Source of the DNA: Candidatus Omnitrophota bacterium
GTDB taxonomy: Bacteria > Omnitrophota > Gorgyraeia > Gygaellales > Profunditerraquicolaceae
Assembly (NCBI GenBank): GCA_018825985.1
Contig: JAHKAP010000047.1
Coordinates: 2,719 to 66,718 of the forward strand
Reading direction: 5' to 3'
DNA: 64,000 nucleotides
Made by a program: the position numbers and the translations under genes. How positions within the stretch are numbered: position 1 is the stretch's first letter; every line of letters begins with the position of its first letter. The notes beneath the pieces were generated by a model, which saw only the letters and a list, made by a program, of their open reading frames with translations, was not told the origin of the DNA and ran no database searches. Shown piece after piece: positions 2,875 to 55,858 of this stretch.

Positions 2875-3601
2875 GATATATTGTTTGAGCGGAGATATCT
2901 CAGGGGATGAAATTACGTTTACTGATACGCAACAGATCCATCATTTAAGAGATGTTTTAAGGATTAAAAGCGATGAGGAGATCATTGTCTGTGACGAGAA
3001 AGGGGATGAATATATTACAGCGATCGATAGTTTTAAGTCCGCCAAGATGGTTTTAAGGATTAAAAAGAGGAGTGGGTTTGTTACGGATAATAAACCCAAG
3101 ATCACCGTCGCCTGCGCCATCCCTAAGAGATCCAATATGGATGAAATCATTGATAAATTAACTCAGCTTGGTGTATACCGTATAATTCCTTTGCAAACTG
3201 AAAGAGTTATCGTTAGAATCGGGCAGGATAAAAAGATATCCCGCCAGAAACGTTGGAGTAAGATTGCCTTAAATGCCAGCCAGCAAAGCCAGAGAAAGAT
3301 CCTGCCGGTAGTTGATCCGGTCAGGGATATAAAGGAGTTATTAGCTGAATTAGATGAATTTGACCTTAGGCTTATACCTACTCTTGAAGGGGAACGAATA
3401 ACTATTAAGGAAATTTTAAAAAAAGGAAAACCGGAAAGCATTATTGTTTTTATTGGGCCGGAAGGTGATTTTACCCCGGAGGAAGTGGAAATGGCAAAAA
3501 AAGCGCTCTGTATTCCGGTAACTCTGGGGGATTTGGTTTTGAGGGTAGAAACTGCGGCTATCGCGGTTGCCGGATTCTTGAGGTTTTATGAAGAGGCCTA
3601 A
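2867..3601 (+). CDS. rsmE: 16S rRNA (uracil1498-N3)-methyltransferase RsmE
   Basis: Matches the RsmE family along its length (PUA-like N-terminus, C-terminal FIGPEGDFTPEE SPOUT motif). It precedes mtaB as in Bacillus yqeU-yqeV. Confidence 0.8.
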   Translation: MFRIYCLSGDISGDEITFTDTQQIHHLRDVLRIKSDEEIIVCDEKGDEYITAIDSFKSAKMVLRIKKRSGFVTDNKPKITVACAIPKRSNMDEIIDKLTQLGVYRIIPLQTERVIVRIGQDKKISRQKRWSKIALNASQQSQRKILPVVDPVRDIKELLAELDEFDLRLIPTLEGERITIKEILKKGKPESIIVFIGPEGDFTPEEVEMAKKALCIPVTLGDLVLRVETAAIAVAGFLRFYEEA

Positions 3602-4922: not shown

Positions 4923-4944
4923 ACGGGGTCAGAATTATTTTTAG
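4923..4944. repeat. Half-REP (GGGGTCAGAATTATTTTT) at the 5' flank of RAYT. It is followed by a CCTCCC...GGGAGG hairpin that contains the RBS.
   Basis: Same core as the eight or more paired REP copies elsewhere in the window. Confidence 0.7.
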
Positions 4945-4993: not shown

Positions 4994-5683
4994 ATGGCCA
5001 GAAGACCGCGTTTATTTGTATCCGATGTACCCTATCACGTTGTTCAGCGAGGCAATAATAAAATTCCTATTTTTTTAGCCGATCAAGATTACCGCATCTT
5101 TTTGGATACGCTCCAAGAAGCCAAAACCAAACACCCTTGTTTTATTTACAGCTATTGCCTGATGCCTAACCATTTCCATTTACTTATTGAACCTAAAGAA
5201 GATAATAATGTCAGTTTATTAATAAAGTTATTGGGAGCCAAATATGTGCGGTATATCAATAAAAACTATGAACGTTCAGGCACTCTTTGGGAAGGTCGTT
5301 TTAAATGCTCATTGATTGATAAGGAATTATATTTTTTAACCTGTCTTCGTTATATTGAAATGAATCCAGTAAGGGCTGGCATAGTCAATTCTCCAGAACT
5401 ATATCGGTGGTCGAGTTATCGGGTTAGGGCAGTTGGTGAAAGAAGTTTTATTGTAGACATGGATCATTGGTATGATAATCTGGGTTCTAATGCAGAAGAA
5501 CGTCAAAATAAATATCGACAATTCTTCCAAAATTCAATATCTGATTCCGCTTTGCAACTTCTACGAGAAATGACTAATAAGAATGGTATCGTAGGCAGCG
5601 TAAACTTTAAAACGCGAGTAGAACAATTTGTCCACAGAGAGATTGTTATAAGGTCTGCTGGCAGGCCGAAGAACGAAAAATAA
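4994..5683 (+). mobile_element. REP-associated tyrosine transposase (RAYT; IS200/IS605 TnpA-like Y1 HuH transposase)
   Basis: HuH motif (PNHFHLLIE) and catalytic Tyr region (RYIEMNPVRAGIV). Inverted half-REPs flank both ends. Confidence 0.85.
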
Positions 5684-5696
5684 TTCTGACCCCATT
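5674..5696. repeat. Half-REP (AAAAATAATTCTGACCCC) at the 3' flank of RAYT. It overlaps the RAYT stop codon.
   Basis: It is the inverse complement of the left half-REP. The decamer ATTAATATTA occurs just inside both flanks. Confidence 0.7.
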
Positions 5697-9671: not shown

Positions 9672-9745
9672 AATAGGAAAATAGGGACAGCGACTATTTT
9701 TTTAAATATAGTATGTGAAAAAAATAGTCGCTGTCCCTATTTTCT
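9672..9745. repeat. REP-like hairpin, type B (AAATAGGGACAGCGACTATTTTT ... AAAAATAGTCGCTGTCCCTATTT)
   Basis: 23-bp inverted repeat. A second copy lies at 40152-40216. Confidence 0.7.
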
Positions 9746-9789: not shown

Positions 9790-9838
9790 TTGGGGTCAGA
9801 ATTATTTTTTTGTTAAAAAATAATTCTGACCCCATTTT
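9790..9838. repeat. Paired REP type A (GGGGTCAGAATTATTTTTTTGTTAAAAAATAATTCTGACCCC)
   Basis: Inverted pair with a 4-nt loop. Same core as the RAYT flanks. Confidence 0.8.
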
Positions 9839-12444: not shown

Positions 12445-12872
12445 TAAGAATATTAGTGATCCATGGCCCGAATTTAAATCTTCTCGGGGCAAGAGAACCC
12501 GAGGTCTACGGCCGGATAACCCTGAAAGCCATTAACCAGGCTTTAAAAAAAATGGCCGGTAAAAAGAAAGTTGGTTTGTCGATCATTCAGTCTAACCACG
12601 AAGGCGAAATAGTCGATAAAATCCACCAGGCCGGCAAAAAATTCCAGGGGATATTAATAAATCCCGCAGCTTATACCCATACGAGCGTAGCCATCAGGGA
12701 TTGCCTGGCCGGATGCGCTATTCCTACGGTTGAGGTCCATCTCTCCAATATTTATTTCCGGGAAGAATTTCGTCAAAAATCCTTGGTAACTCCTGTGGTG
12801 AAGGGTACGGTTATGGGTTTTGGCAAAAATAGCTATTTGCTGGGATTAGAGGCCCTCCTGGATATAATATAG
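12441..12872 (+). CDS. aroQ: 3-dehydroquinate dehydratase, type II
   Basis: [15 protein letters not shown] and [10 protein letters not shown] motifs. Confidence 0.9.
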
Positions 12873-12873
12873 A

Positions 12874-12943
12874 AAAATGGGGTCAGAATTATTTTTTCTC
12901 TGGTCTACTTTCTAAAAAAATAATTCTGACCCCATTTCTCAGA
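12874..12943. repeat. Paired REP type A
   Basis: AAAATGGGGTCAGAATTATTTTTT...AAAAAATAATTCTGACCCCATTT. It ends 6 nt before the pepP-like start. Confidence 0.8.
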
Positions 12944-25310: not shown

Positions 25311-25390
25311 TGTAAATGGGGTCAGAATTATTTTTCTTATTTTACTTACCCGAAAAATAATTCTGACCCCATTTAGACCCCATTTACAAG
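25311..25390. repeat. Paired REP type A, flanked by a 25-bp direct duplication (25283-25309 and 25391-25417)
   Basis: GATGCcAAGATAGTTAAATTAtAAA repeats as GATGCgAAGATAGTTAAATTAaAAA. The first copy contains the yfcE stop. Confidence 0.75.
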
Positions 25391-36465: not shown

Positions 36466-36547
36466 GAAATGGGGTCAGAATTATTTTTTCTTTAGTCTGG
36501 CGCTCGAAAAAATAATTCTGACCCCATTTCTGCTGACCCCATTTCTG
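36466..36547. repeat. Paired REP type A with an extra partial 3' repeat (GACCCCATTTCTG x2)
   Basis: GAAATGGGGTCAGAATTATTTTTTC…GAAAAAATAATTCTGACCCCATTTCTGCTGACCCCATTTCTG. Confidence 0.8.
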
Positions 36548-40151: not shown

Positions 40152-40216
40152 TAAATAGGGACAGCGACTATTTTTTAGCTCGCTCTCCCTATTTAAAAAA
40201 TAGTCGCTGTCCCTAT
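40152..40216. repeat. REP-like hairpin type B, second copy, with a diverged middle copy
   Basis: AAATAGGGACAGCGACTATTTTTT … AAAAAATAGTCGCTGTCCCTAT. Confidence 0.7.
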
Positions 40217-43794: not shown

Positions 43795-43931
43795 AGAAAT
43801 GGGGTCACAAGAAATGGGGTCACACAAGAAATGGGGTCAGAATTATTTTTTCGTATCAAGTAAAGTAGACAAAAATAATTCTGACCCCATTTCTCAAAAA
43901 TAATTCTGACCCCATTTCTTGACCACATTTC
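43795..43931. repeat. Compound REP type A cluster: three tandem GAAATGGGGTCA half-sites, one full pair, and an extra 3' half
   Basis: AGAAATGGGGTCA x3 … AAAAATAATTCTGACCCCATTTCT x2. Confidence 0.8.
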
Positions 43932-43956: not shown

Positions 43957-44886
43957 ATGAAAATAGCGATAGTCGGGCCGGGGGCAATGGGATGTTTATT
44001 CGCCGCTTTTTTATCAAAAACAGACGCGGATATAGTTTTAATAGATAAAGACAGCCAGCGCGCGGAAAAAATAAATCAGCAAGGCATAATAGTCGAAGGA
44101 GTTTCCGGAAGTTGGCAGGCAAAAGTAAAAGTAACTTCCGATATCAAGGATATAGGCGCGCTGGATTTAATATTGCTCTGCGTAAAATCCTACGATACCA
44201 AGTCAGCTTGCGCCCAAGTCAAGTTATTAGCCGGTGAAAATACCTTGGTTCTTACATTGCAAAATGGTATCGGTAATATTGAAATATTGGGTGAGATCAT
44301 CGGTCAGGATAAAATAATCGCCGGGATCACTAATTTAGGTTCGACATTGATAGGTTTTGGGCATATTAATCATGCCGGATTTGGCGAAACTATAATTGGC
44401 AGGATGGATAATAAACTTCCTGCCGGGATGCGTTCTATCAGAGAAGTTTTTAATAAAGCAGGTTTAGATACTAGGATATCCAGGGATATTAAGGGTTTAT
44501 TATGGTCAAAGTTAGTAATCAATGCCGGGATAAATCCTCTTAGCGCTATAACCAGGCTGAAGAACGGGCGTCTGGTGGAGGCAGAACCTGCCCGCAAGAT
44601 TCTGCGCGAGACGGTTACAGAGGTTGTAAAAGTGATCAAGCGCAAAAGGATCAAACTGATCTTTGATGATCCTTTGGCTAAGGTTGAAGCGGTATGTGAG
44701 GCCACGGCCGGCAACGTATCCTCCATGCTCCAGGATGTCCTTAATAATAAACGCACCGAAATAGATTTTATTAATGGAGTAGTTGTGCGTATGGCTCAGG
44801 AGTTGGGGGTGCCAGCTCCGGTAAATTCGTTTTTAGTGGAATTGGTTAAAACTATTGAAATAAGTTACGGATTATCCTTAAAATGA
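43957..44886 (+). CDS. panE: 2-dehydropantoate 2-reductase
   Basis: Rossmann IVGPGAMG and the ApbA C-terminal domain. Confidence 0.8.
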   Translation: MKIAIVGPGAMGCLFAAFLSKTDADIVLIDKDSQRAEKINQQGIIVEGVSGSWQAKVKVTSDIKDIGALDLILLCVKSYDTKSACAQVKLLAGENTLVLTLQNGIGNIEILGEIIGQDKIIAGITNLGSTLIGFGHINHAGFGETIIGRMDNKLPAGMRSIREVFNKAGLDTRISRDIKGLLWSKLVINAGINPLSAITRLKNGRLVEAEPARKILRETVTEVVKVIKRKRIKLIFDDPLAKVEAVCEATAGNVSSMLQDVLNNKRTEIDFINGVVVRMAQELGVPAPVNSFLVELVKTIEISYGLSLK

Positions 44887-45266
44887 ACACACGGATAAAA
44901 AGAAATATTTTAGTAGTTGACGATAATAAAAATAATAGGGATGTGGTAAGTATGACTTTGGAGGAGGCCGGCCACAGGGTGATTGCTGTGGCCGCCGGGA
45001 CCCATGGTTTGGAGAAACTTAAAACCGAAAAAATAGATCTGATTATTTTAGAATTAGTTTTAGCTGGTTTAGATGGTTACGGATTATTGACGATGCTTAA
45101 AAGCGATCCTCTGACTAAAGAAATACCGGTTTTGGTCCTGACCGGCAGGGATTCAAGGGGCGAGGTAGAGGAAGCGATAAAATTAGGAGCAGTTGATTGT
45201 ATAGTAAGATACAGGCTTCCACCGGCAGAACTTTTGAAAATCGTAAATATAATCCTAAAAGGTTAA
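44883..45266 (+). CDS. Stand-alone receiver (REC) domain with Glu at the phospho-acceptor position and Arg at the conserved Lys
   Basis: LVVDD; IDLIILELVLAG (Glu where Asp57 is expected); VLVLTG; VDCIVRYR (Arg where Lys109 is expected). Confidence 0.8.
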   Translation: MNTRIKRNILVVDDNKNNRDVVSMTLEEAGHRVIAVAAGTHGLEKLKTEKIDLIILELVLAGLDGYGLLTMLKSDPLTKEIPVLVLTGRDSRGEVEEAIKLGAVDCIVRYRLPPAELLKIVNIILKG

Positions 45267-45281
45267 AAAAAGGAGGATATC

Positions 45282-45653
45282 GTGGCCAAAGTAGTAATGG
45301 TAGTTGATGATAGCAAAATGAGCCGGGAAGTCATCCGGATGAGCCTTGAAAAGGCGGATTATCAGGTAATCCTTGCCGAGAATGGCGAGCAGGCCATCGA
45401 TAAATTAAAAACAGATAATAAAGTTGATTTAATTATTCTAGACCTGGTGCTTCCTGGTTTGGACGGTTTTGGCGTCCTTTGCATTATTAAGAATGATCCG
45501 GTACTAAAAAATATTCCGGTAATAATTTTTACAAACAGGGAATCAGAGGCAGATAGGCAGGAGGCATTAGAATTAGGGGCGATAGATGTTATGGTTAAGC
45601 ATAGAGAATCCCAGGATGATCTTGTAAAATATATTAAACAGTTGATACAATAG
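45282..45653 (+). CDS. Stand-alone CheY-like receiver domain (canonical)
   Basis: VVDD, VDLIILDLVLPG, IIFTN, VMVKH. Confidence 0.85.
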   Translation: MAKVVMVVDDSKMSREVIRMSLEKADYQVILAENGEQAIDKLKTDNKVDLIILDLVLPGLDGFGVLCIIKNDPVLKNIPVIIFTNRESEADRQEALELGAIDVMVKHRESQDDLVKYIKQLIQ

Positions 45654-46562
45654 ATGTTAATTTTTTTATTATCGGTTATTATATTCAGCGGCTGTTCACA
45701 GCAGAATCTTTATAAAGACAGCCGGATAATCATGGGCACTTTTGTTGAAGTAACCTCTCCTTATAAGGGGGCGGCCAACACAGCCTTCCAGGAAATCTCC
45801 AGGATCGAGAAGTTACTGAGCAAATATGACCCGGACAGCGAAATATCCAGGCTGAATAGATCCGGGGAATTAGCGCTCAGTGAGGATACTGGGAATGTTT
45901 TAAAAAAAGCCAGAGAGTTTTGGAGGCTTACCGCAGGCAGCTTTGATGTGACCATCGGGCCTTTAATGGACCTCTGGGGATTTACGACAAAGAATTATCG
46001 TCTGCCTGAAGACACTCAGATCAAGAAAACCCTGGAACTAGTTGGTTTTGATAAAATTATCTTTAATGATGAAAATAATGTGGTAAAATACATTTTTTCC
46101 GGGGCAGAAATAGACTTGGGCGGCATTGCCAAGGGGTATGCAATTGATCGGGCAGTATTTAAGTTAAAAGAAAAAGGCATATTCAGCTGTTTGATAAACG
46201 CCGGCGGCCAGGTTTATTGCTTAGGGGATAATTTCGGTAAGCCTTGGCGAGTCGGTATAAAAAACCCGCGCAAGCCCGGAATTGTTGATTATTTAGAGCT
46301 CAGAGATAAAGCGGTCTCGACCTCCGGAGATTATGAACAATATTTTATTATTAATGGCAGGCGTTTTTCTCACATAATGGATCCTAAAACAGGTTATCCG
46401 GTTGATAGGGGAGTAGTTGCAGTAACAGTGGTTGCCGATGATTCGACTCTGGCAGACGCGCTATCAACTTCGATTTTTGTGTTGGGTAAAGAAAAAGGGT
46501 TGGAATTGGCAAAAAAAATACCCGGTGTACAAGTAAATATTTTAAGCAATGAGCAGTATTAA
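45654..46562 (+). CDS. apbE: FAD:protein FMN transferase (ApbE family)
   Basis: ApbE fold (IMGTFVEV…, GGIAKGYAIDRA). Lipoprotein-like N-terminus. Confidence 0.85.
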   Translation: MLIFLLSVIIFSGCSQQNLYKDSRIIMGTFVEVTSPYKGAANTAFQEISRIEKLLSKYDPDSEISRLNRSGELALSEDTGNVLKKAREFWRLTAGSFDVTIGPLMDLWGFTTKNYRLPEDTQIKKTLELVGFDKIIFNDENNVVKYIFSGAEIDLGGIAKGYAIDRAVFKLKEKGIFSCLINAGGQVYCLGDNFGKPWRVGIKNPRKPGIVDYLELRDKAVSTSGDYEQYFIINGRRFSHIMDPKTGYPVDRGVVAVTVVADDSTLADALSTSIFVLGKEKGLELAKKIPGVQVNILSNEQY

Positions 46563-47874
46563 ATCTAATTCAATGTTTATATATTTTTCCCAGCTTTTGG
46601 ATAAGCCGGTGGTTGATTCCGGCGGCCGGGTAGCGGGAGAATTGTATGATATTATAGTAAAAGCAACAGAGGTTTATCCTCAGTCATCCCACCTGATAAT
46701 CCGCAAGGGGTGGTCTCTTAACAAGCAGTATGCGGTTGTGCCTTGGGTGAGTATTGCCGAGAGGGATAATAAAGAAATAAGGCTTAATATCGGCGCTAGC
46801 GCGATCGTTTTTACCGAGCATCACAATAACAAAGAAGAATTCACTCTGCGCCGGGATATACTGGATCAGCAGGTAGTAGATACTTATAATCATAAAGCGA
46901 TCCGGGTAAATGATATTCATCTTTTAGCAGTAGATCATTCTTTAATGATCGCGCATGTGGATGTAAGCGTAAGAGGATTATTCAGGCGCTTAGGTTTTGA
47001 AGGCCTGGTCGATTTTCTGGTCGGCTTAGTGAACAAAGACGCAGATTACCTTTTAACCGAGCATCTGATACCCTGGAAACATATACAGCCTTTATCGGTT
47101 AATCCAGTCAGTATGACTATTAAGGTAAATTTCCCTCAGAAGAAGCTCAACAGTATACCTGCCGCAGATCTGGGCGAGATCTTTCTTGACCTGAATGTCA
47201 AGGATCAGACGGCTTTATTCAAGTCTCTGGATGTTAATTCTAAGGCTAAGGTTTTTCTGGGGATCGATTTTAAATATCAGAAGTCGTTGATTGAAGACCT
47301 GCCCGATCCTGAAATAGCCGCTATCTTAAATGCCTTGCCCACTGACGAAGCTACTGATTTTTTAGAGAAACTGCCTAAGGACCAGGTCAACCGGTTTTTG
47401 GCGATCATGGAAAATAAGCAGGCCAAGAAGTTATCTCAATTATTAGGTTATTCCAGCGATTCAGCAGGCGGGCTTATGACCGCCGATTTTTTATCGGTAT
47501 TTAAGAATATGCCGGTTGAGGCGGTATTAATCCAGATCAGGGAGAGGGCGTTTAAGGTTGAACCCGTACAGTTAGTATATATTATTGATGAAAATAATAA
47601 GTTGGTAGGCGCGACTAATTTCAGGAGGCTTATTTTAGCCAGCCCGGCTGATCCGGTATCCAAAACAGCTTTTGCCAAGACCTATTTTGTTAATTTAAAC
47701 TCTAGCGTGAAGGAAGTGGCTTATCTAATGGAGAAGTATAAATATTATGCAATTCCGGTAGTGGATGATAACAATGCCCTGCAGGGGATTATTACGGTCG
47801 ACGATATATTGAGCCAGGTTATTTCTATTGCCTGGCGCAGGCTGAAGAAAATAAAAATACTTCCGAAACAATAA
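46549..47874 (+). CDS. Soluble regulatory protein: two PRC-barrel domains, MgtE N-terminal domain, CBS pair. The MgtE transmembrane channel domain is absent.
   Basis: MgtE_N motif (…LGYSSDSAGGLMTADF) and CBS pair. The protein ends after the CBS pair with no hydrophobic segments. Confidence 0.7.
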   Translation: MSSIKSNSMFIYFSQLLDKPVVDSGGRVAGELYDIIVKATEVYPQSSHLIIRKGWSLNKQYAVVPWVSIAERDNKEIRLNIGASAIVFTEHHNNKEEFTLRRDILDQQVVDTYNHKAIRVNDIHLLAVDHSLMIAHVDVSVRGLFRRLGFEGLVDFLVGLVNKDADYLLTEHLIPWKHIQPLSVNPVSMTIKVNFPQKKLNSIPAADLGEIFLDLNVKDQTALFKSLDVNSKAKVFLGIDFKYQKSLIEDLPDPEIAAILNALPTDEATDFLEKLPKDQVNRFLAIMENKQAKKLSQLLGYSSDSAGGLMTADFLSVFKNMPVEAVLIQIRERAFKVEPVQLVYIIDENNKLVGATNFRRLILASPADPVSKTAFAKTYFVNLNSSVKEVAYLMEKYKYYAIPVVDDNNALQGIITVDDILSQVISIAWRRLKKIKILPKQ

Positions 47875-47881
47875 TATGAAT

Positions 47882-47946
47882 GAAATGGGGTCAGAATTAT
47901 TTTTTCTTTATTTTATGTGCTCGAAAAAATAATTCTGACCCCATTA
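47882..47946. repeat. Paired REP type A
   Basis: GAAATGGGGTCAGAATTATTTTTTC…GAAAAAATAATTCTGACCCCATTA. Flanked by the similar 13-mers AATATGAATGAAA and AATTATGAATAAA. Confidence 0.8.
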
Positions 47947-47953
47947 ATTAATT

Positions 47954-49192
47954 ATGAATAAACTAAAGGCATACTGGAGAGAGCTGCTGATTTTTCTGTC
48001 AATAATGGGGCCGGGTATCATCACCGCTAACGTGGATAATGATGCCGGCGGCATCACTACTTATTCCGTAGCCGGGGCCCATTTCGGATATTCCCTGATC
48101 TGGTCTTTTGTCCCTATTATTATAGCCCTTATTATAATCCAGGAGATGTGCAGCCGTATGGCTGTAGTTACTGGCAAGGGCCTGGCAGATTTGATCCGCG
48201 AGGAATTCGGGGTCAGGGTTACCTTCTACGCTATGACCGTCCTGGTATTTTCGAACATTTTTAATACTATTTCTGAGTTTGCCGGTATTGCCGCGGCGTC
48301 CGAGCTTTTTGGGATGAGTAAATATCTTTTAGTCCCGGCCTGCGCGATTTTTGTCTGGTGGCTGATTGTAAAAGGGACTTATAAGACCGTGGAAAAAGTT
48401 TTTTTAGCCGCCTGTCTTTTTTACCTATCATACATTTTTTCCGGATTCTTATCTAACCCAAACTGGAATGAGGTGGTGGCTAGTTCCGTAAAACCCAGCA
48501 TAAAATTCGACAAGGCTTATCTTTTTATGCTTATGGGTGTCATCGGGACTACCATTGCTCCTTGGATGCAATTTTACCAACAGTCGTCAGTGGTTGAAAA
48601 AGAGATCAAGATAAAAAATTATAAGTATAGCAAAATGGATGTGATCGTTGGCTCTTTTGTGGTCAATATAGTCGCTATTTTTATAGTGGTGGTCTGCGCA
48701 AACACCCTATTTAAACACGGGATAAGGATAGAGACCGCCAAAGACGCGGCTTTGGCGCTTAAGCCTCTGGCCGGTAAATATTGTTTTTACCTTTTTGCCT
48801 TCGGGCTATTAAACGCCTCAGTGTTCTCTGCATGCATCCTTCCTCTATCTACCGCTTATTCGGTTTGTGAGGGTATGGGTTGGGAGGTGGGCGTAAATAA
48901 GCGTTTCCGTGAAGCCCCGCAATTTTATACCCTTTATACTACCGTTATTATTATCGGAGCCGCGGTGATCTTGCTCCCGAACGTCCCGCTTATCACTGTT
49001 ATGCTTGTCTCTCAGGTTACTAACGGGCTTTTGCTTCCTTTTGTTTTGATTTTTATGTTGATGTTGGTTAATAATAAGCGCCTGATGGGTAACTATACAA
49101 ATTCTAGGGTCTATAATATATTTGCCATAGCTACTATTGTTTTAATGATCGTTTTGTCAGTAATGCTGATATTTAGTTATTTCATCCACTAA
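47954..49192 (+). CDS. NRAMP-family transporter with a non-canonical metal-binding site (NRMT-like, putative Mg2+ transporter)
   Basis: NRAMP core (AGAHFGYSLIWSF…QEMCSRMAVVTGKGLADLIREEF). The TM1 motif reads DNDAGG rather than DPGN. The TM6 motif reads IAPW rather than MPH. Confidence 0.7.
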   Translation: MNKLKAYWRELLIFLSIMGPGIITANVDNDAGGITTYSVAGAHFGYSLIWSFVPIIIALIIIQEMCSRMAVVTGKGLADLIREEFGVRVTFYAMTVLVFSNIFNTISEFAGIAAASELFGMSKYLLVPACAIFVWWLIVKGTYKTVEKVFLAACLFYLSYIFSGFLSNPNWNEVVASSVKPSIKFDKAYLFMLMGVIGTTIAPWMQFYQQSSVVEKEIKIKNYKYSKMDVIVGSFVVNIVAIFIVVVCANTLFKHGIRIETAKDAALALKPLAGKYCFYLFAFGLLNASVFSACILPLSTAYSVCEGMGWEVGVNKRFREAPQFYTLYTTVIIIGAAVILLPNVPLITVMLVSQVTNGLLLPFVLIFMLMLVNNKRLMGNYTNSRVYNIFAIATIVLMIVLSVMLIFSYFIH

Positions 49193-51383: not shown

Positions 51384-51477
51384 AAATGGGGTCAGAAAAT
51401 GGGGTCAGAATTATTTTTTCTTTTTGTTTTATTGTAAAAAATAATTCTGACCCCATTTTCTGACTGACCCCATTTAC
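51383..51477. repeat. Compound REP type A (two left halves, one right half plus an extra partial)
   Basis: AAATGGGGTCAGAAAATGGGGTCAGAATTATTTTTTC…AAAAAATAATTCTGACCCCATTTTCTGACTGACCCCATTT. Confidence 0.8.
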
Positions 51478-55682: not shown

Positions 55683-55756
55683 GCGCCTGTAGCTCATAAG
55701 GATAGAGCAGCAGTTTCCTAAACTGCGTGCGGCAGGTTCGATTCCTGCCAGGCGCA
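55683..55756 (+). tRNA. tRNA-Arg (anticodon CCT)
   Basis: GCGCCTG acceptor stem, anticodon loop TTCCTAA, T-arm GGCAGGTTCGATTCCTGCC, 3' CAGGCGC-A. The CCA is not encoded. Confidence 0.8.
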
Positions 55757-55771
55757 CAAGACAGACAAGGC

Positions 55772-55858
55772 AGGGACACCCCGTCAGCTAATCGTCAGGG
55801 TGTCCCCATACAAAAATAATAGGGACACCCTTAGCTTTATCTGGGAGGGTGTCCCTAA
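55772..55858. repeat. Two tandem hairpins of type C (GGGACACCC…GGGTGTCCC) immediately 3' of tRNA-Arg
   Basis: 55772-55807 and 55820-55858. The GGGACA core is shared with type B repeats. Confidence 0.7.

Follow-up and report, generated by a model that had tools for sequence, protein, structure and literature searches.

A soluble tandem PRC-barrel and MgtE-like protein encoded next to an NRAMP-related Mg2+ transporter in a Candidatus Omnitrophota genome

NRAMP-related Mg2+ transporters (NRMTs, also written NrmTs) make up the fourth class of Mg2+ importer known in bacteria, and the role of the accessory gene conserved beside them has been a question since 2014. In that year, the discovery of NrmT was accompanied by the report of an "MgtE-like fragment" adjoining the transporter gene and by the proposal that it regulates the transporter by feedback, with "metal chaperone activity" named as an alternative (Shin et al., 2014, PLoS Genet; PMC4072509). 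The accessory protein was called "small" in that work, and PRC barrels were never mentioned. Here we analyze a gene pair of this kind in a 64,000-nucleotide stretch of DNA (hereafter, the window) from a Candidatus Omnitrophota bacterium (GCA_018825985.1, contig JAHKAP010000047.1, positions 2,719 to 66,718 of the forward strand), in which the gene for a soluble protein combining two PRC barrels with the N-domain and CBS pair of MgtE (hereafter, the partner) precedes an NRMT gene.

Both the gene pair and the idea of regulation in trans are hence already published, and the window locus is an Omnitrophota example of a known operon type. The literature searched held no paper joining the PRC barrel with MgtE and, after 2014, only the study of EleNRMT treats an NRMT together with MgtE, the accessory gene not being mentioned there. 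Not found in that literature were the constant presence of tandem PRC barrels in the partner, with barrel 2 as its most conserved part, the fusion of the same four-domain module to a real MgtE pore in proteins of about 600 residues, the basic tail that replaces the acidic plug helix in soluble partners, and the occurrence of some soluble homologues without an NRMT neighbor. The locus itself adds nothing categorically new, and its value lies in a sharper description of a long-neglected accessory protein. That the two proteins are correctly identified, and that their pairing is conserved, we hold to be very nearly certain.

The NRMT and its soluble partner

The downstream gene and the motifs of its predicted metal site are located in the window as follows, TM1 and TM6 denoting the first and sixth transmembrane helices.

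47954..49192, plus strand: NRMT gene, 412 residues; Pfam Nramp domain, best PDB match 7qia
48041..48052, plus strand: TM1 metal-site motif D30-A31-G32-G33 (DPGN in NRAMPs), in register with DraNramp, ScaDMT and 7qia
48545..48565, plus strand: TM6 metal-site motif G198-T199-T200-I201-A202-P203-W204 (GATVMPH in NRAMPs), in register with DraNramp, ScaDMT and 7qia

The encoded protein carries a full-length Nramp domain (PF01566, E 2.9e-106, residues 34-385, model positions 1-357 of 357), in agreement with the family assigned to it in the preliminary description of this DNA. Its top match in the PDB is 7qia (E 3.9e-117; 46.7% identity over 398 aligned columns), the best match among canonical NRAMPs (DraNramp, ScaDMT, EcoDMT and human NRAMP1/2) has an E-value of 2.2e-28, and the NCBIfam model for MntH scores 143, below its cut-off of 430. 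We treat 7qia as EleNRMT because its numbering fits every EleNRMT residue named in the original study (PMC8806188). With the roles of the site residues taken from that study (Ramanadane et al., 2022, eLife; PMC8806188), the correspondence between the two transporters is the following.

EleNRMT D55: window D30, the conserved TM1 Asp
EleNRMT G58: window G33, replacing the Asn of DPGN
EleNRMT E133: window E108, the helix 3 Glu, kept
EleNRMT T224: window T199, replacing Ala and needed for Mg2+
EleNRMT A227: window A202, replacing the metal-binding Met
EleNRMT W229: window W204, replacing the first proton-path His (helix 6b)
EleNRMT N234: window Q209, replacing the second proton-path His
EleNRMT Q379: window Q354, the helix 10 Gln, kept

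All the EleNRMT signature residues (D30, G33, E108, T199, A202, W204 and Q354 in window numbering) are therefore present. The preliminary description had read DNDAGG in place of DPGN in TM1 and APW in place of MPH in TM6. Alignment with DraNramp, ScaDMT and 7qia bears out the second reading and, for the first, upholds a substitution in register (DAGG), the first two of the six residues lying upstream of the aligned motif; no canonical DPGN or MPH was found in a shifted register of that alignment. The agreement at these positions confirms the earlier suggestion of an NRMT-like protein and shows that, by its predicted binding site, the downstream protein is an NRMT and not a canonical Mn2+/Fe2+ NRAMP. 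From the experiments on EleNRMT and CabNRMT we infer that it should import Mg2+ in hydrated form (and Mn2+), uncoupled from protons.

The partner gene and the segments of its product, assigned by sequence matches and by AlphaFold 2 (AF2) models, are arranged as follows.

46549..47874, plus strand: partner gene, encoding a soluble accessory protein of 441 residues (open reading frame; Pfam, NCBIfam and PDB matches; AF2 model; Foldseek)
46576..46788, plus strand: PRC barrel 1, residues 10-80 (PF05239 when scanned alone; beta-strands at 10-79 in AF2 models; Foldseek)
46861..47136, plus strand: PRC barrel 2, residues 105-196, with a helical insertion at residues 141-170 (hhalign, AF2, Foldseek, conservation)
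47137..47448, plus strand: MgtE_N helical domain, residues 197-300 (PF03448, E 1.5e-23; ten helices in the AF2 model)
47449..47799, plus strand: CBS pair, residues 301-417 (two PF00571 stretches; Foldseek and PDB matches)
47800..47874, plus strand: C-terminal helix and basic tail, DDILSQVISIAWRRLKKIKILPKQ followed by the stop codon (alignment to TtMgtE and to full-length PRC-MgtE)

The coordinates and strand given for both reading frames in the preliminary description are correct, as is its account of a 441-residue protein with an MgtE N-domain and a CBS pair, and its two PRC barrels are supported by AF2, Foldseek and hhalign. Pfam places MgtE_N at residues 204-304 (E 1.5e-23) and recognizes two CBS domains (PF00571, E 1e-16), and residues ~200-430 match the MgtE cytosolic domains 8gpv, 8gps, 2yvy and 2oux among PDB sequences (E 1e-27 to 1e-29). 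The AF2 model has a mean predicted local distance difference test (pLDDT) score of 91 and superposes on 8gpv with a root mean square deviation (rmsd) of 1.6 A and a Foldseek TM-score of 0.87 on the target. The architecture PRC - PRC - MgtE_N - CBS pair is completed by a short basic C-terminal helix, and this helix and tail sit where MgtE has its acidic plug helix.

The protein also lacks a membrane domain, as previously proposed: the Pfam scan returned no match to the MgtE pore (PF01769), and no transmembrane segment is apparent in a hydropathy profile whose highest Kyte-Doolittle 19-residue mean is 1.34. The mgtE equivalog model TIGR00400 scores 163, under its cut-off of 232.75, and its match is confined to positions 24-255 of the 450 in the model. 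The partial, subthreshold match and the absence of a hydrophobic segment identify the partner as a pore-less relative of MgtE. An alternative start at M9 (nucleotide 46573) would give 433 residues, the length of an identical database protein (P0001), and residues 1-4 have pLDDT below 50 in the AF2 model.

The first 200 residues of the partner, modeled alone (pLDDT 89.9; predicted template modeling score 0.84), matched only PRC-barrel proteins in Foldseek, namely the CdpB1/CdpB2 pair (8qzo, E ~1e-6, ~200 aligned columns), MTH1859 (1pm3), 3htr, RimM and reaction-centre H subunits, and the predicted structure of the barrels has pLDDT 90-91. For barrel 1, the Pfam PRC match at residues 10-81 scores 20.3 bits when the whole protein is scanned; scanned alone, the barrel reaches 23.6 bits and exceeds the cut-off of 21.2. 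Barrel 2 of the window protein gave no Pfam match in the segment scan; it aligns with barrel 1 in hhalign (probability 85%, E 5.9e-6), and the equivalent region of the homologue P0234 does match PRC (residues 96-139). The models and profile alignments hence support two PRC barrels in the partner, with slightly lower certainty for the second.

Distribution and origin of the partner

The genes surrounding the pair (YbeY, RecO, ApbA, two receiver-only response regulators, ApbE, then, past the partner and the NRMT, PanB and an aminoacyl-tRNA synthetase) all lie on the plus strand with tiny gaps, and adjacency in the window genome alone carries little weight because its neighbors are so co-directional and tightly packed. 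Scanning an alignment of NRMTs against one genome per GTDB species yielded at least 595 confirmed relatives, of which the best 80 loci were examined; 75 of these had at least 1.4 kb of upstream sequence and form the base of the pairing count. The partner lies directly upstream of the NRMT at 64 of the 75 (85%), and an N-terminal PRC region is detectable besides MgtE_N-CBS at 63 of those 64. The 80 loci span the Omnitrophota, Zixibacteria, Syntrophales/Smithella, Geobacteraceae, Acidobacteriota, Chloroflexota, Elusimicrobia, Nitrospirae, Spirochaetes, Peptococcaceae and others; DAGG and GTTIAPW are near-universal among them, partner lengths fall mostly between 414 and 460 residues, and spacing between the two genes ranges mostly from -4 to ~110 nt. 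When the sampling started from soluble homologues instead (8 informative ones, with identity as low as ~27%), an NRMT came next in 6. The co-occurrence anticipated in the preliminary description thus extends well beyond this genome and over many phyla, and the association is strong but not exclusive. Candidate fusions of partner and NRMT (open reading frames of 856 and 601 residues) were discarded as artifacts of frame extension, with in-frame stops at one locus (L020) and upstream read-through in high-GC genomes.

The nearest NRMT loci belong to Omnitrophota genomes, and the closest named partner homologue (87% identity) comes from a Candidatus Omnitrophota metagenome-assembled genome (MAG). 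Four Omnitrophota relatives (L001-L004) keep the order ApbE - partner - NRMT - PanB, and the partner and NRMT genes, 79 nt apart in the window, overlap by 4 bp or stand 2 bp apart in relatives (L001, L003). Identity within the partner family ranges from 26% to 87%, under strong purifying selection. These data bear directly on the reading of the partner as a decaying MgtE remnant that has lost its pore and whose adjacency is accidental, a reading suggested by its resemblance to a truncated MgtE and by the dense packing of the window genes on one strand. Intact homologues number in the thousands over many phyla and keep a constant length (414-460 residues), strongly conserved motifs and a conserved gene order, all of which speaks against decay, and on these conservation data the remnant reading is effectively excluded, its residual probability being negligible.

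Conservation is unevenly spread over the partner. The tandem PRC barrels account for ~45% of the protein and are conserved family-wide, and the first half of barrel 2 (residues 105-140) is the most conserved stretch of all, averaging 2.66 bits per column where MgtE_N and CBS have 2.0-2.2. The family motif of this barrel is LDxQ[IV]VD..G.K[VI].RVND...VDVG.RGL.RRLG, and the near-invariant residues of the partner are D106, Q108, D111, R119, V120, N121, D122, D138, G143, R146, R147 and W176.

An exhaustive search recovered proteins of ~600 residues that match residues 11-424 of the partner (~30% identity) and then run into the MgtE transmembrane domain PF01769, as exemplified by P0149, P0165, P0187 and P0222. 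It is because of this match, continued by a pore, that the soluble partner can be equated with the whole cytosolic part of a PRC-bearing MgtE subfamily, and the full-length PRC-MgtE channels, which keep the barrel-2 motif too, are its probable evolutionary source. Two of the three full-length genes whose neighbors were examined stand alone, and the third, P0165, is followed by an NRMT: at 611-3386 of L087 (Logan SRR22388088), P0165 (599 residues, with the PF01769 pore) directly precedes a homologue of the window NRMT (52% identity), an arrangement that may be an intermediate before loss of the pore. A Mut7-C gene is found just upstream of a soluble partner and Nramp pair in one locus (L086, 2420-2890, opposite strand) and just upstream of a stand-alone full-length PRC-MgtE in another (L094, 2420-2896, same strand). 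These Mut7-C neighbors hint that the split pair in one genome may correspond in position to the full-length channel in a related one.

Possible roles of the partner

In the functional step of the preliminary description, the MgtE-type cytosolic module was taken to have been recruited in trans to gate or regulate the neighboring transporter. Its descriptive steps being right and its functional step plausible and already published, that interpretation is partly supported. We regard it as a tentative proposition, somewhat short of an even chance, that the partner serves as a sensor of cytosolic Mg2+ and restrains uptake through the NRMT in trans. In such a mechanism, the partner would dimerize through its CBS pair, like MgtE, and would bind cytosolic Mg2+ at the acidic residues kept at the interface between N-domain and CBS pair (the equivalents of D91, D95 and D247), which would rearrange its domains. 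Acting in trans, the rearranged partner would lower uptake by the NRMT when cytosolic Mg2+ is sufficient, and control at the protein level would replace the riboswitch control used in relatives. Docking on the transporter could involve the barrel-2 motif, the basic C-terminal helix, or both, these parts being proposed because they are either the most conserved or the ones that differ from ordinary MgtE.

In favor of regulation in trans are the conserved pairing of the two genes, the M-box upstream of the partner gene in some relatives, the strong purifying selection on the partner family, and the attachment of the same PRC, MgtE_N and CBS module in cis to a Mg2+ channel pore in the ~600-residue proteins. 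The fate of the MgtE Mg2+ sites was followed by mapping the TtMgtE residues (PMC5882242) onto 126 soluble homologues, with a cross-check against the HMMER alignment.

TtMgtE D91 (site Mg4): window D266; acidic in 91% of the homologues
TtMgtE D95 (Mg6): window D270; acidic in 97%
TtMgtE D247 (Mg4): window D419; Asp in 89%
TtMgtE E59 (Mg7): window K234; acidic in 70%
TtMgtE D226 (Mg5): window K398; acidic in 25%
TtMgtE D250 (Mg5): window S422; acidic in 59%
TtMgtE E258 (Mg2): window R430; acidic in 4%, basic in 66%
TtMgtE D259 (Mg3): window residue absent from the alignment; 115 of the 126 homologues have a gap

The residues of the N-domain/CBS interface (the D91, D95 and D247 equivalents) are thus kept in 89-97% of the homologues. 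Several other observations weigh against sensing and control of the NRMT by the partner. The plug-helix Mg2+ sites (E258, D259 and, in part, D250 and D226) are lost in soluble partners: full-length PRC-MgtE proteins keep an acidic plug helix (DV.xEE.xED., as in DVLEAEATEDI of TtMgtE), and the window partner, which ends ~11 residues past R430, reads SQVISIAWRRLKKIKILPKQ there. In the window partner, moreover, the E59 equivalent is a Lys (K234), and ATP-site residues (from PMC5529423) are partly kept in the CBS pair (L342, R359, R360, F375, Y399); at the level of the family, the ATP-site positions Y170 and R187 are mostly conserved, with L342, R360 and F375 at ligand positions in the window. The accessory reading frame was not needed for complementation by NrmT, and co-expression of the A. 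capsulatum Acp2976 with Acp2977, the only published test, brought no further gain in rescue (Shin et al., 2014; PMC4072509). EleNRMT was characterized in proteoliposome transport assays in a study that mentions no partner protein (PMC8806188). In the comparative data, 11 of the 75 NRMT loci have no adjacent partner, the soluble homologue P0263 has no transporter neighbor, and the gene for another, P0160 (432 residues, ~30% identity; L085, 3001-4961, GCA_020725805.1), overlaps by 4 bp the gene of a PAP2-family, phosphatase-like membrane protein instead of an NRMT, suggesting that the module can be paired with membrane proteins of other kinds. Lastly, the window lacks the M-box Mg2+ riboswitch that accompanies some of its relatives, as detailed below.

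Many of these observations favor the main rival, in which the partner is an autonomous cytosolic sensor of Mg2+ or of a nucleotide with one or more targets besides or instead of the NRMT, candidates being further membrane proteins or, by way of the PRC barrels, some other machinery of the cell; adjacency would then reflect co-regulation in Mg2+ homeostasis. The PAP2 overlap of P0160, the lack of a transporter beside P0263, the 11 loci without an adjacent partner and the missing effect of co-expression (PMC4072509) all fit such a sensor, and the most conserved element of the partner, being common to full-length MgtE, is not an NRMT-specific adaptation. The soluble module is, in any event, not strictly tied to NRMTs. 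PRC barrels are known to mediate protein-protein contacts in systems as unrelated as RimM, reaction-centre H and CdpB, which also counts for this rival. An autonomous sensor does not readily account for the very high frequency of pairing across phyla, for overlapping or abutting frames typical of co-translated partners, or for the covalent union of the same module with a Mg2+ pore in full-length relatives, and we consider it unlikely.

The remodeled C-terminus also suits a second rival, in which the partner would serve the NRMT in structure, assembly or metal handling, as a stabilizing subunit, a membrane recruiter or a metallochaperone taking over imported Mg2+ or Mn2+. The basic amphipathic tail and the lost acidic plug fit docking on the membrane or on the transporter without MgtE-type gating, many acidic residues are kept in the N-domain, and metal chaperone activity was the alternative put forward in the original report (PMC4072509). 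NRMTs, for their part, function and are stable when the partner is absent. As Mg2+ is plentiful and bound weakly, a chaperone for it is hard to rationalize, and an assembly or chaperone role appears decidedly improbable.

Evidence from riboswitches bears on the identity of the metal. Many NrmT operons carry M-box riboswitches (Shin et al., 2014; PMC4072509). Of 13 relatives scanned, two, Pelotalea chapellei (L029) and a Peptococcaceae MAG (L041), have an M-box immediately before the partner gene, and none was found in the window or at the 11 other scanned loci. The two aptamers map to 3433-3598 and 68-234, with scores of 131 and 151 bits, respectively. The absence of an M-box from the window operon is compatible with a third rival, in which the pair handles Mn2+ rather than Mg2+ here and the partner would be a sensor of Mn2+ or of some other cation. 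An NrmT-clade protein of A. capsulatum, likewise encoded with an adjacent partner and no riboswitch, behaved mainly as a transporter of Mn2+, which it seemed to prefer (PMC4072509), and EleNRMT also transports Mn2+ (PMC8806188). Against this stand the retention of T199, the equivalent of T224 in EleNRMT, and the presence of the full NRMT signature, and a dedicated Mn2+ system is in our judgment very unlikely at this locus.

Taken as a joint statement on identity and mechanism, the view that this is an NRMT operon such as Shin et al. (2014) were the first to describe, trans-regulation included, stands evenly poised between acceptance and rejection. A broader reading, which we advance as rather doubtful, is that the PRC/MgtE_N/CBS unit constitutes a portable cytosolic Mg2+-sensing gate for two unrelated uptake systems, serving the MgtE pore in cis and the LeuT-fold NRMT in trans in thousands of genomes, with the acidic plug rebuilt as a basic docking helix and the barrel-2 motif as a shared effector or oligomerization surface. 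Regulation in trans, if true, would show the transfer of a sensor domain between unrelated transporter folds, and the portable gate would amount to a natural swap of a regulatory module between a channel and a secondary-transporter fold. Whichever role applies, the comparative data define the architecture of the accessory protein, nearly half of which consists of tandem PRC barrels, separate the surviving from the lost MgtE Mg2+ sites, and single out the RVND/RRLG surface of barrel 2 and the remodeled C-terminal helix as targets for mutagenesis.

Genomic setting and comparison with known systems

Upstream of the pair, the ApbE gene (FAD:protein FMN transferase family; 45654-46562) overlaps the annotated start of the partner gene by 14 nt, an overlap that a start at M9 (46573) would turn into a 10-nt gap. 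Two adjoining CheY-like, receiver-only reading frames (44883-45266, 127 residues, and 45282-45653, 123 residues), identified by eye from their translations, precede ApbE. No cognate kinase for them was seen in the 42-54 kb stretch when the translations were read by eye, without a domain scan.

The spacer between partner and NRMT holds a hairpin that was considered as an operon-specific regulatory element and rejected, since it belongs to a palindrome family repeated in the window and is missing from the relatives L001 and L003. The arms of this intergenic family, TGGGGTCAGAATTATTTTT, match the window 17 times, where 0 matches would be expected, and build at least 7 near-perfect hairpins in the gaps between genes. 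Its sites, and those of related repeats, are the following.

47884..47945, no strand assigned: intergenic hairpin between partner and NRMT, 23-bp perfect arms, minimum free energy -32.6 kcal/mol, z = -7.35
4924-4942, 5676-5694, 9791-9834, 12872-12940, 25313-25375, 36466-36530, 43825-43921, 47884-47945 and 51391-51464: sites of the TGGGGTCAGAATTATTTTT family, the one at 43825-43921 holding three arms
9677-9744 and 40155-40216: two intergenic sites of a second palindrome family of the same design, with arms ATAGGGACAGCGACTATTTTTT
55772-55856: imperfect inverted repeat AGGGACACCC..., just past a tRNA (55683-55756)

Within this Omnitrophota genome, the TGGGGTCAGAATTATTTTT family looks like a repetitive extragenic palindromic (REP) or miniature inverted-repeat transposable element (MITE)-like sequence or a shared terminator-like hairpin. 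Neither an M-box nor any other Rfam family was found near the window pair, where only chance-level "miRNA" matches occurred, spurious hits attributable to the intergenic palindromes.

The window transporter finds its closest counterparts in the NRMT/NrmT proteins of C. acetobutylicum (Ca_c0685, Ca_c3329) and E. lenta (EleNRMT, 7QIA), with which it shares the SLC11 fold, the substitutions at the metal site and along the proton path, and a similar length. It differs from EleNRMT in having Gln209 for the Asn at the second proton-path His position and, from the known NRMT/NrmT systems, in its Candidatus Omnitrophota host, in the lack of an M-box riboswitch and in being known here from sequence alone. 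The partner agrees with the "MgtE-like fragment" (Acp2976 in A. capsulatum; split genes in C. acetobutylicum) in its upstream place and strand, in its homology to the MgtE N-domain and CBS pair, and in having no pore. It departs from that fragment in its tandem PRC module, ~45% of the protein, the comparison with Acp2976 and the Clostridium split genes being made by description only.

The cytosolic domain of MgtE (T. thermophilus 2YVX/2YVY; 8GPV; 8GPS; 2OUX) shares the fold of its N-domain and CBS pair with the partner (rmsd 1.6-2.5 A, 26-30% identity), and the acidic equivalents of D91, D95 and D247 are kept. Unlike MgtE, the partner has no transmembrane domain, carries a basic tail in place of the acidic plug, has lost the residues of sites Mg2, Mg3 and Mg5, and possesses an extra 200 N-terminal residues in the form of tandem PRC barrels. 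Full-length PRC-MgtE proteins share the entire PRC-PRC-MgtE_N-CBS module and differ by their PF01769 pore and by an acidic plug helix that is still in place. Lastly, the PRC-barrel proteins (the archaeal cell-division proteins CdpB1/CdpB2, 8QZO; MTH1859, 1PM3; RimM; reaction-centre H) have their fold in common with the N-terminal 200 residues of the partner (Foldseek E ~1e-6 to 1e-2). The partner is set apart from them by an identity of only 10-24%, by the helical insertion and RVND/RRLG motif of its second barrel, and by its ion-transport context.

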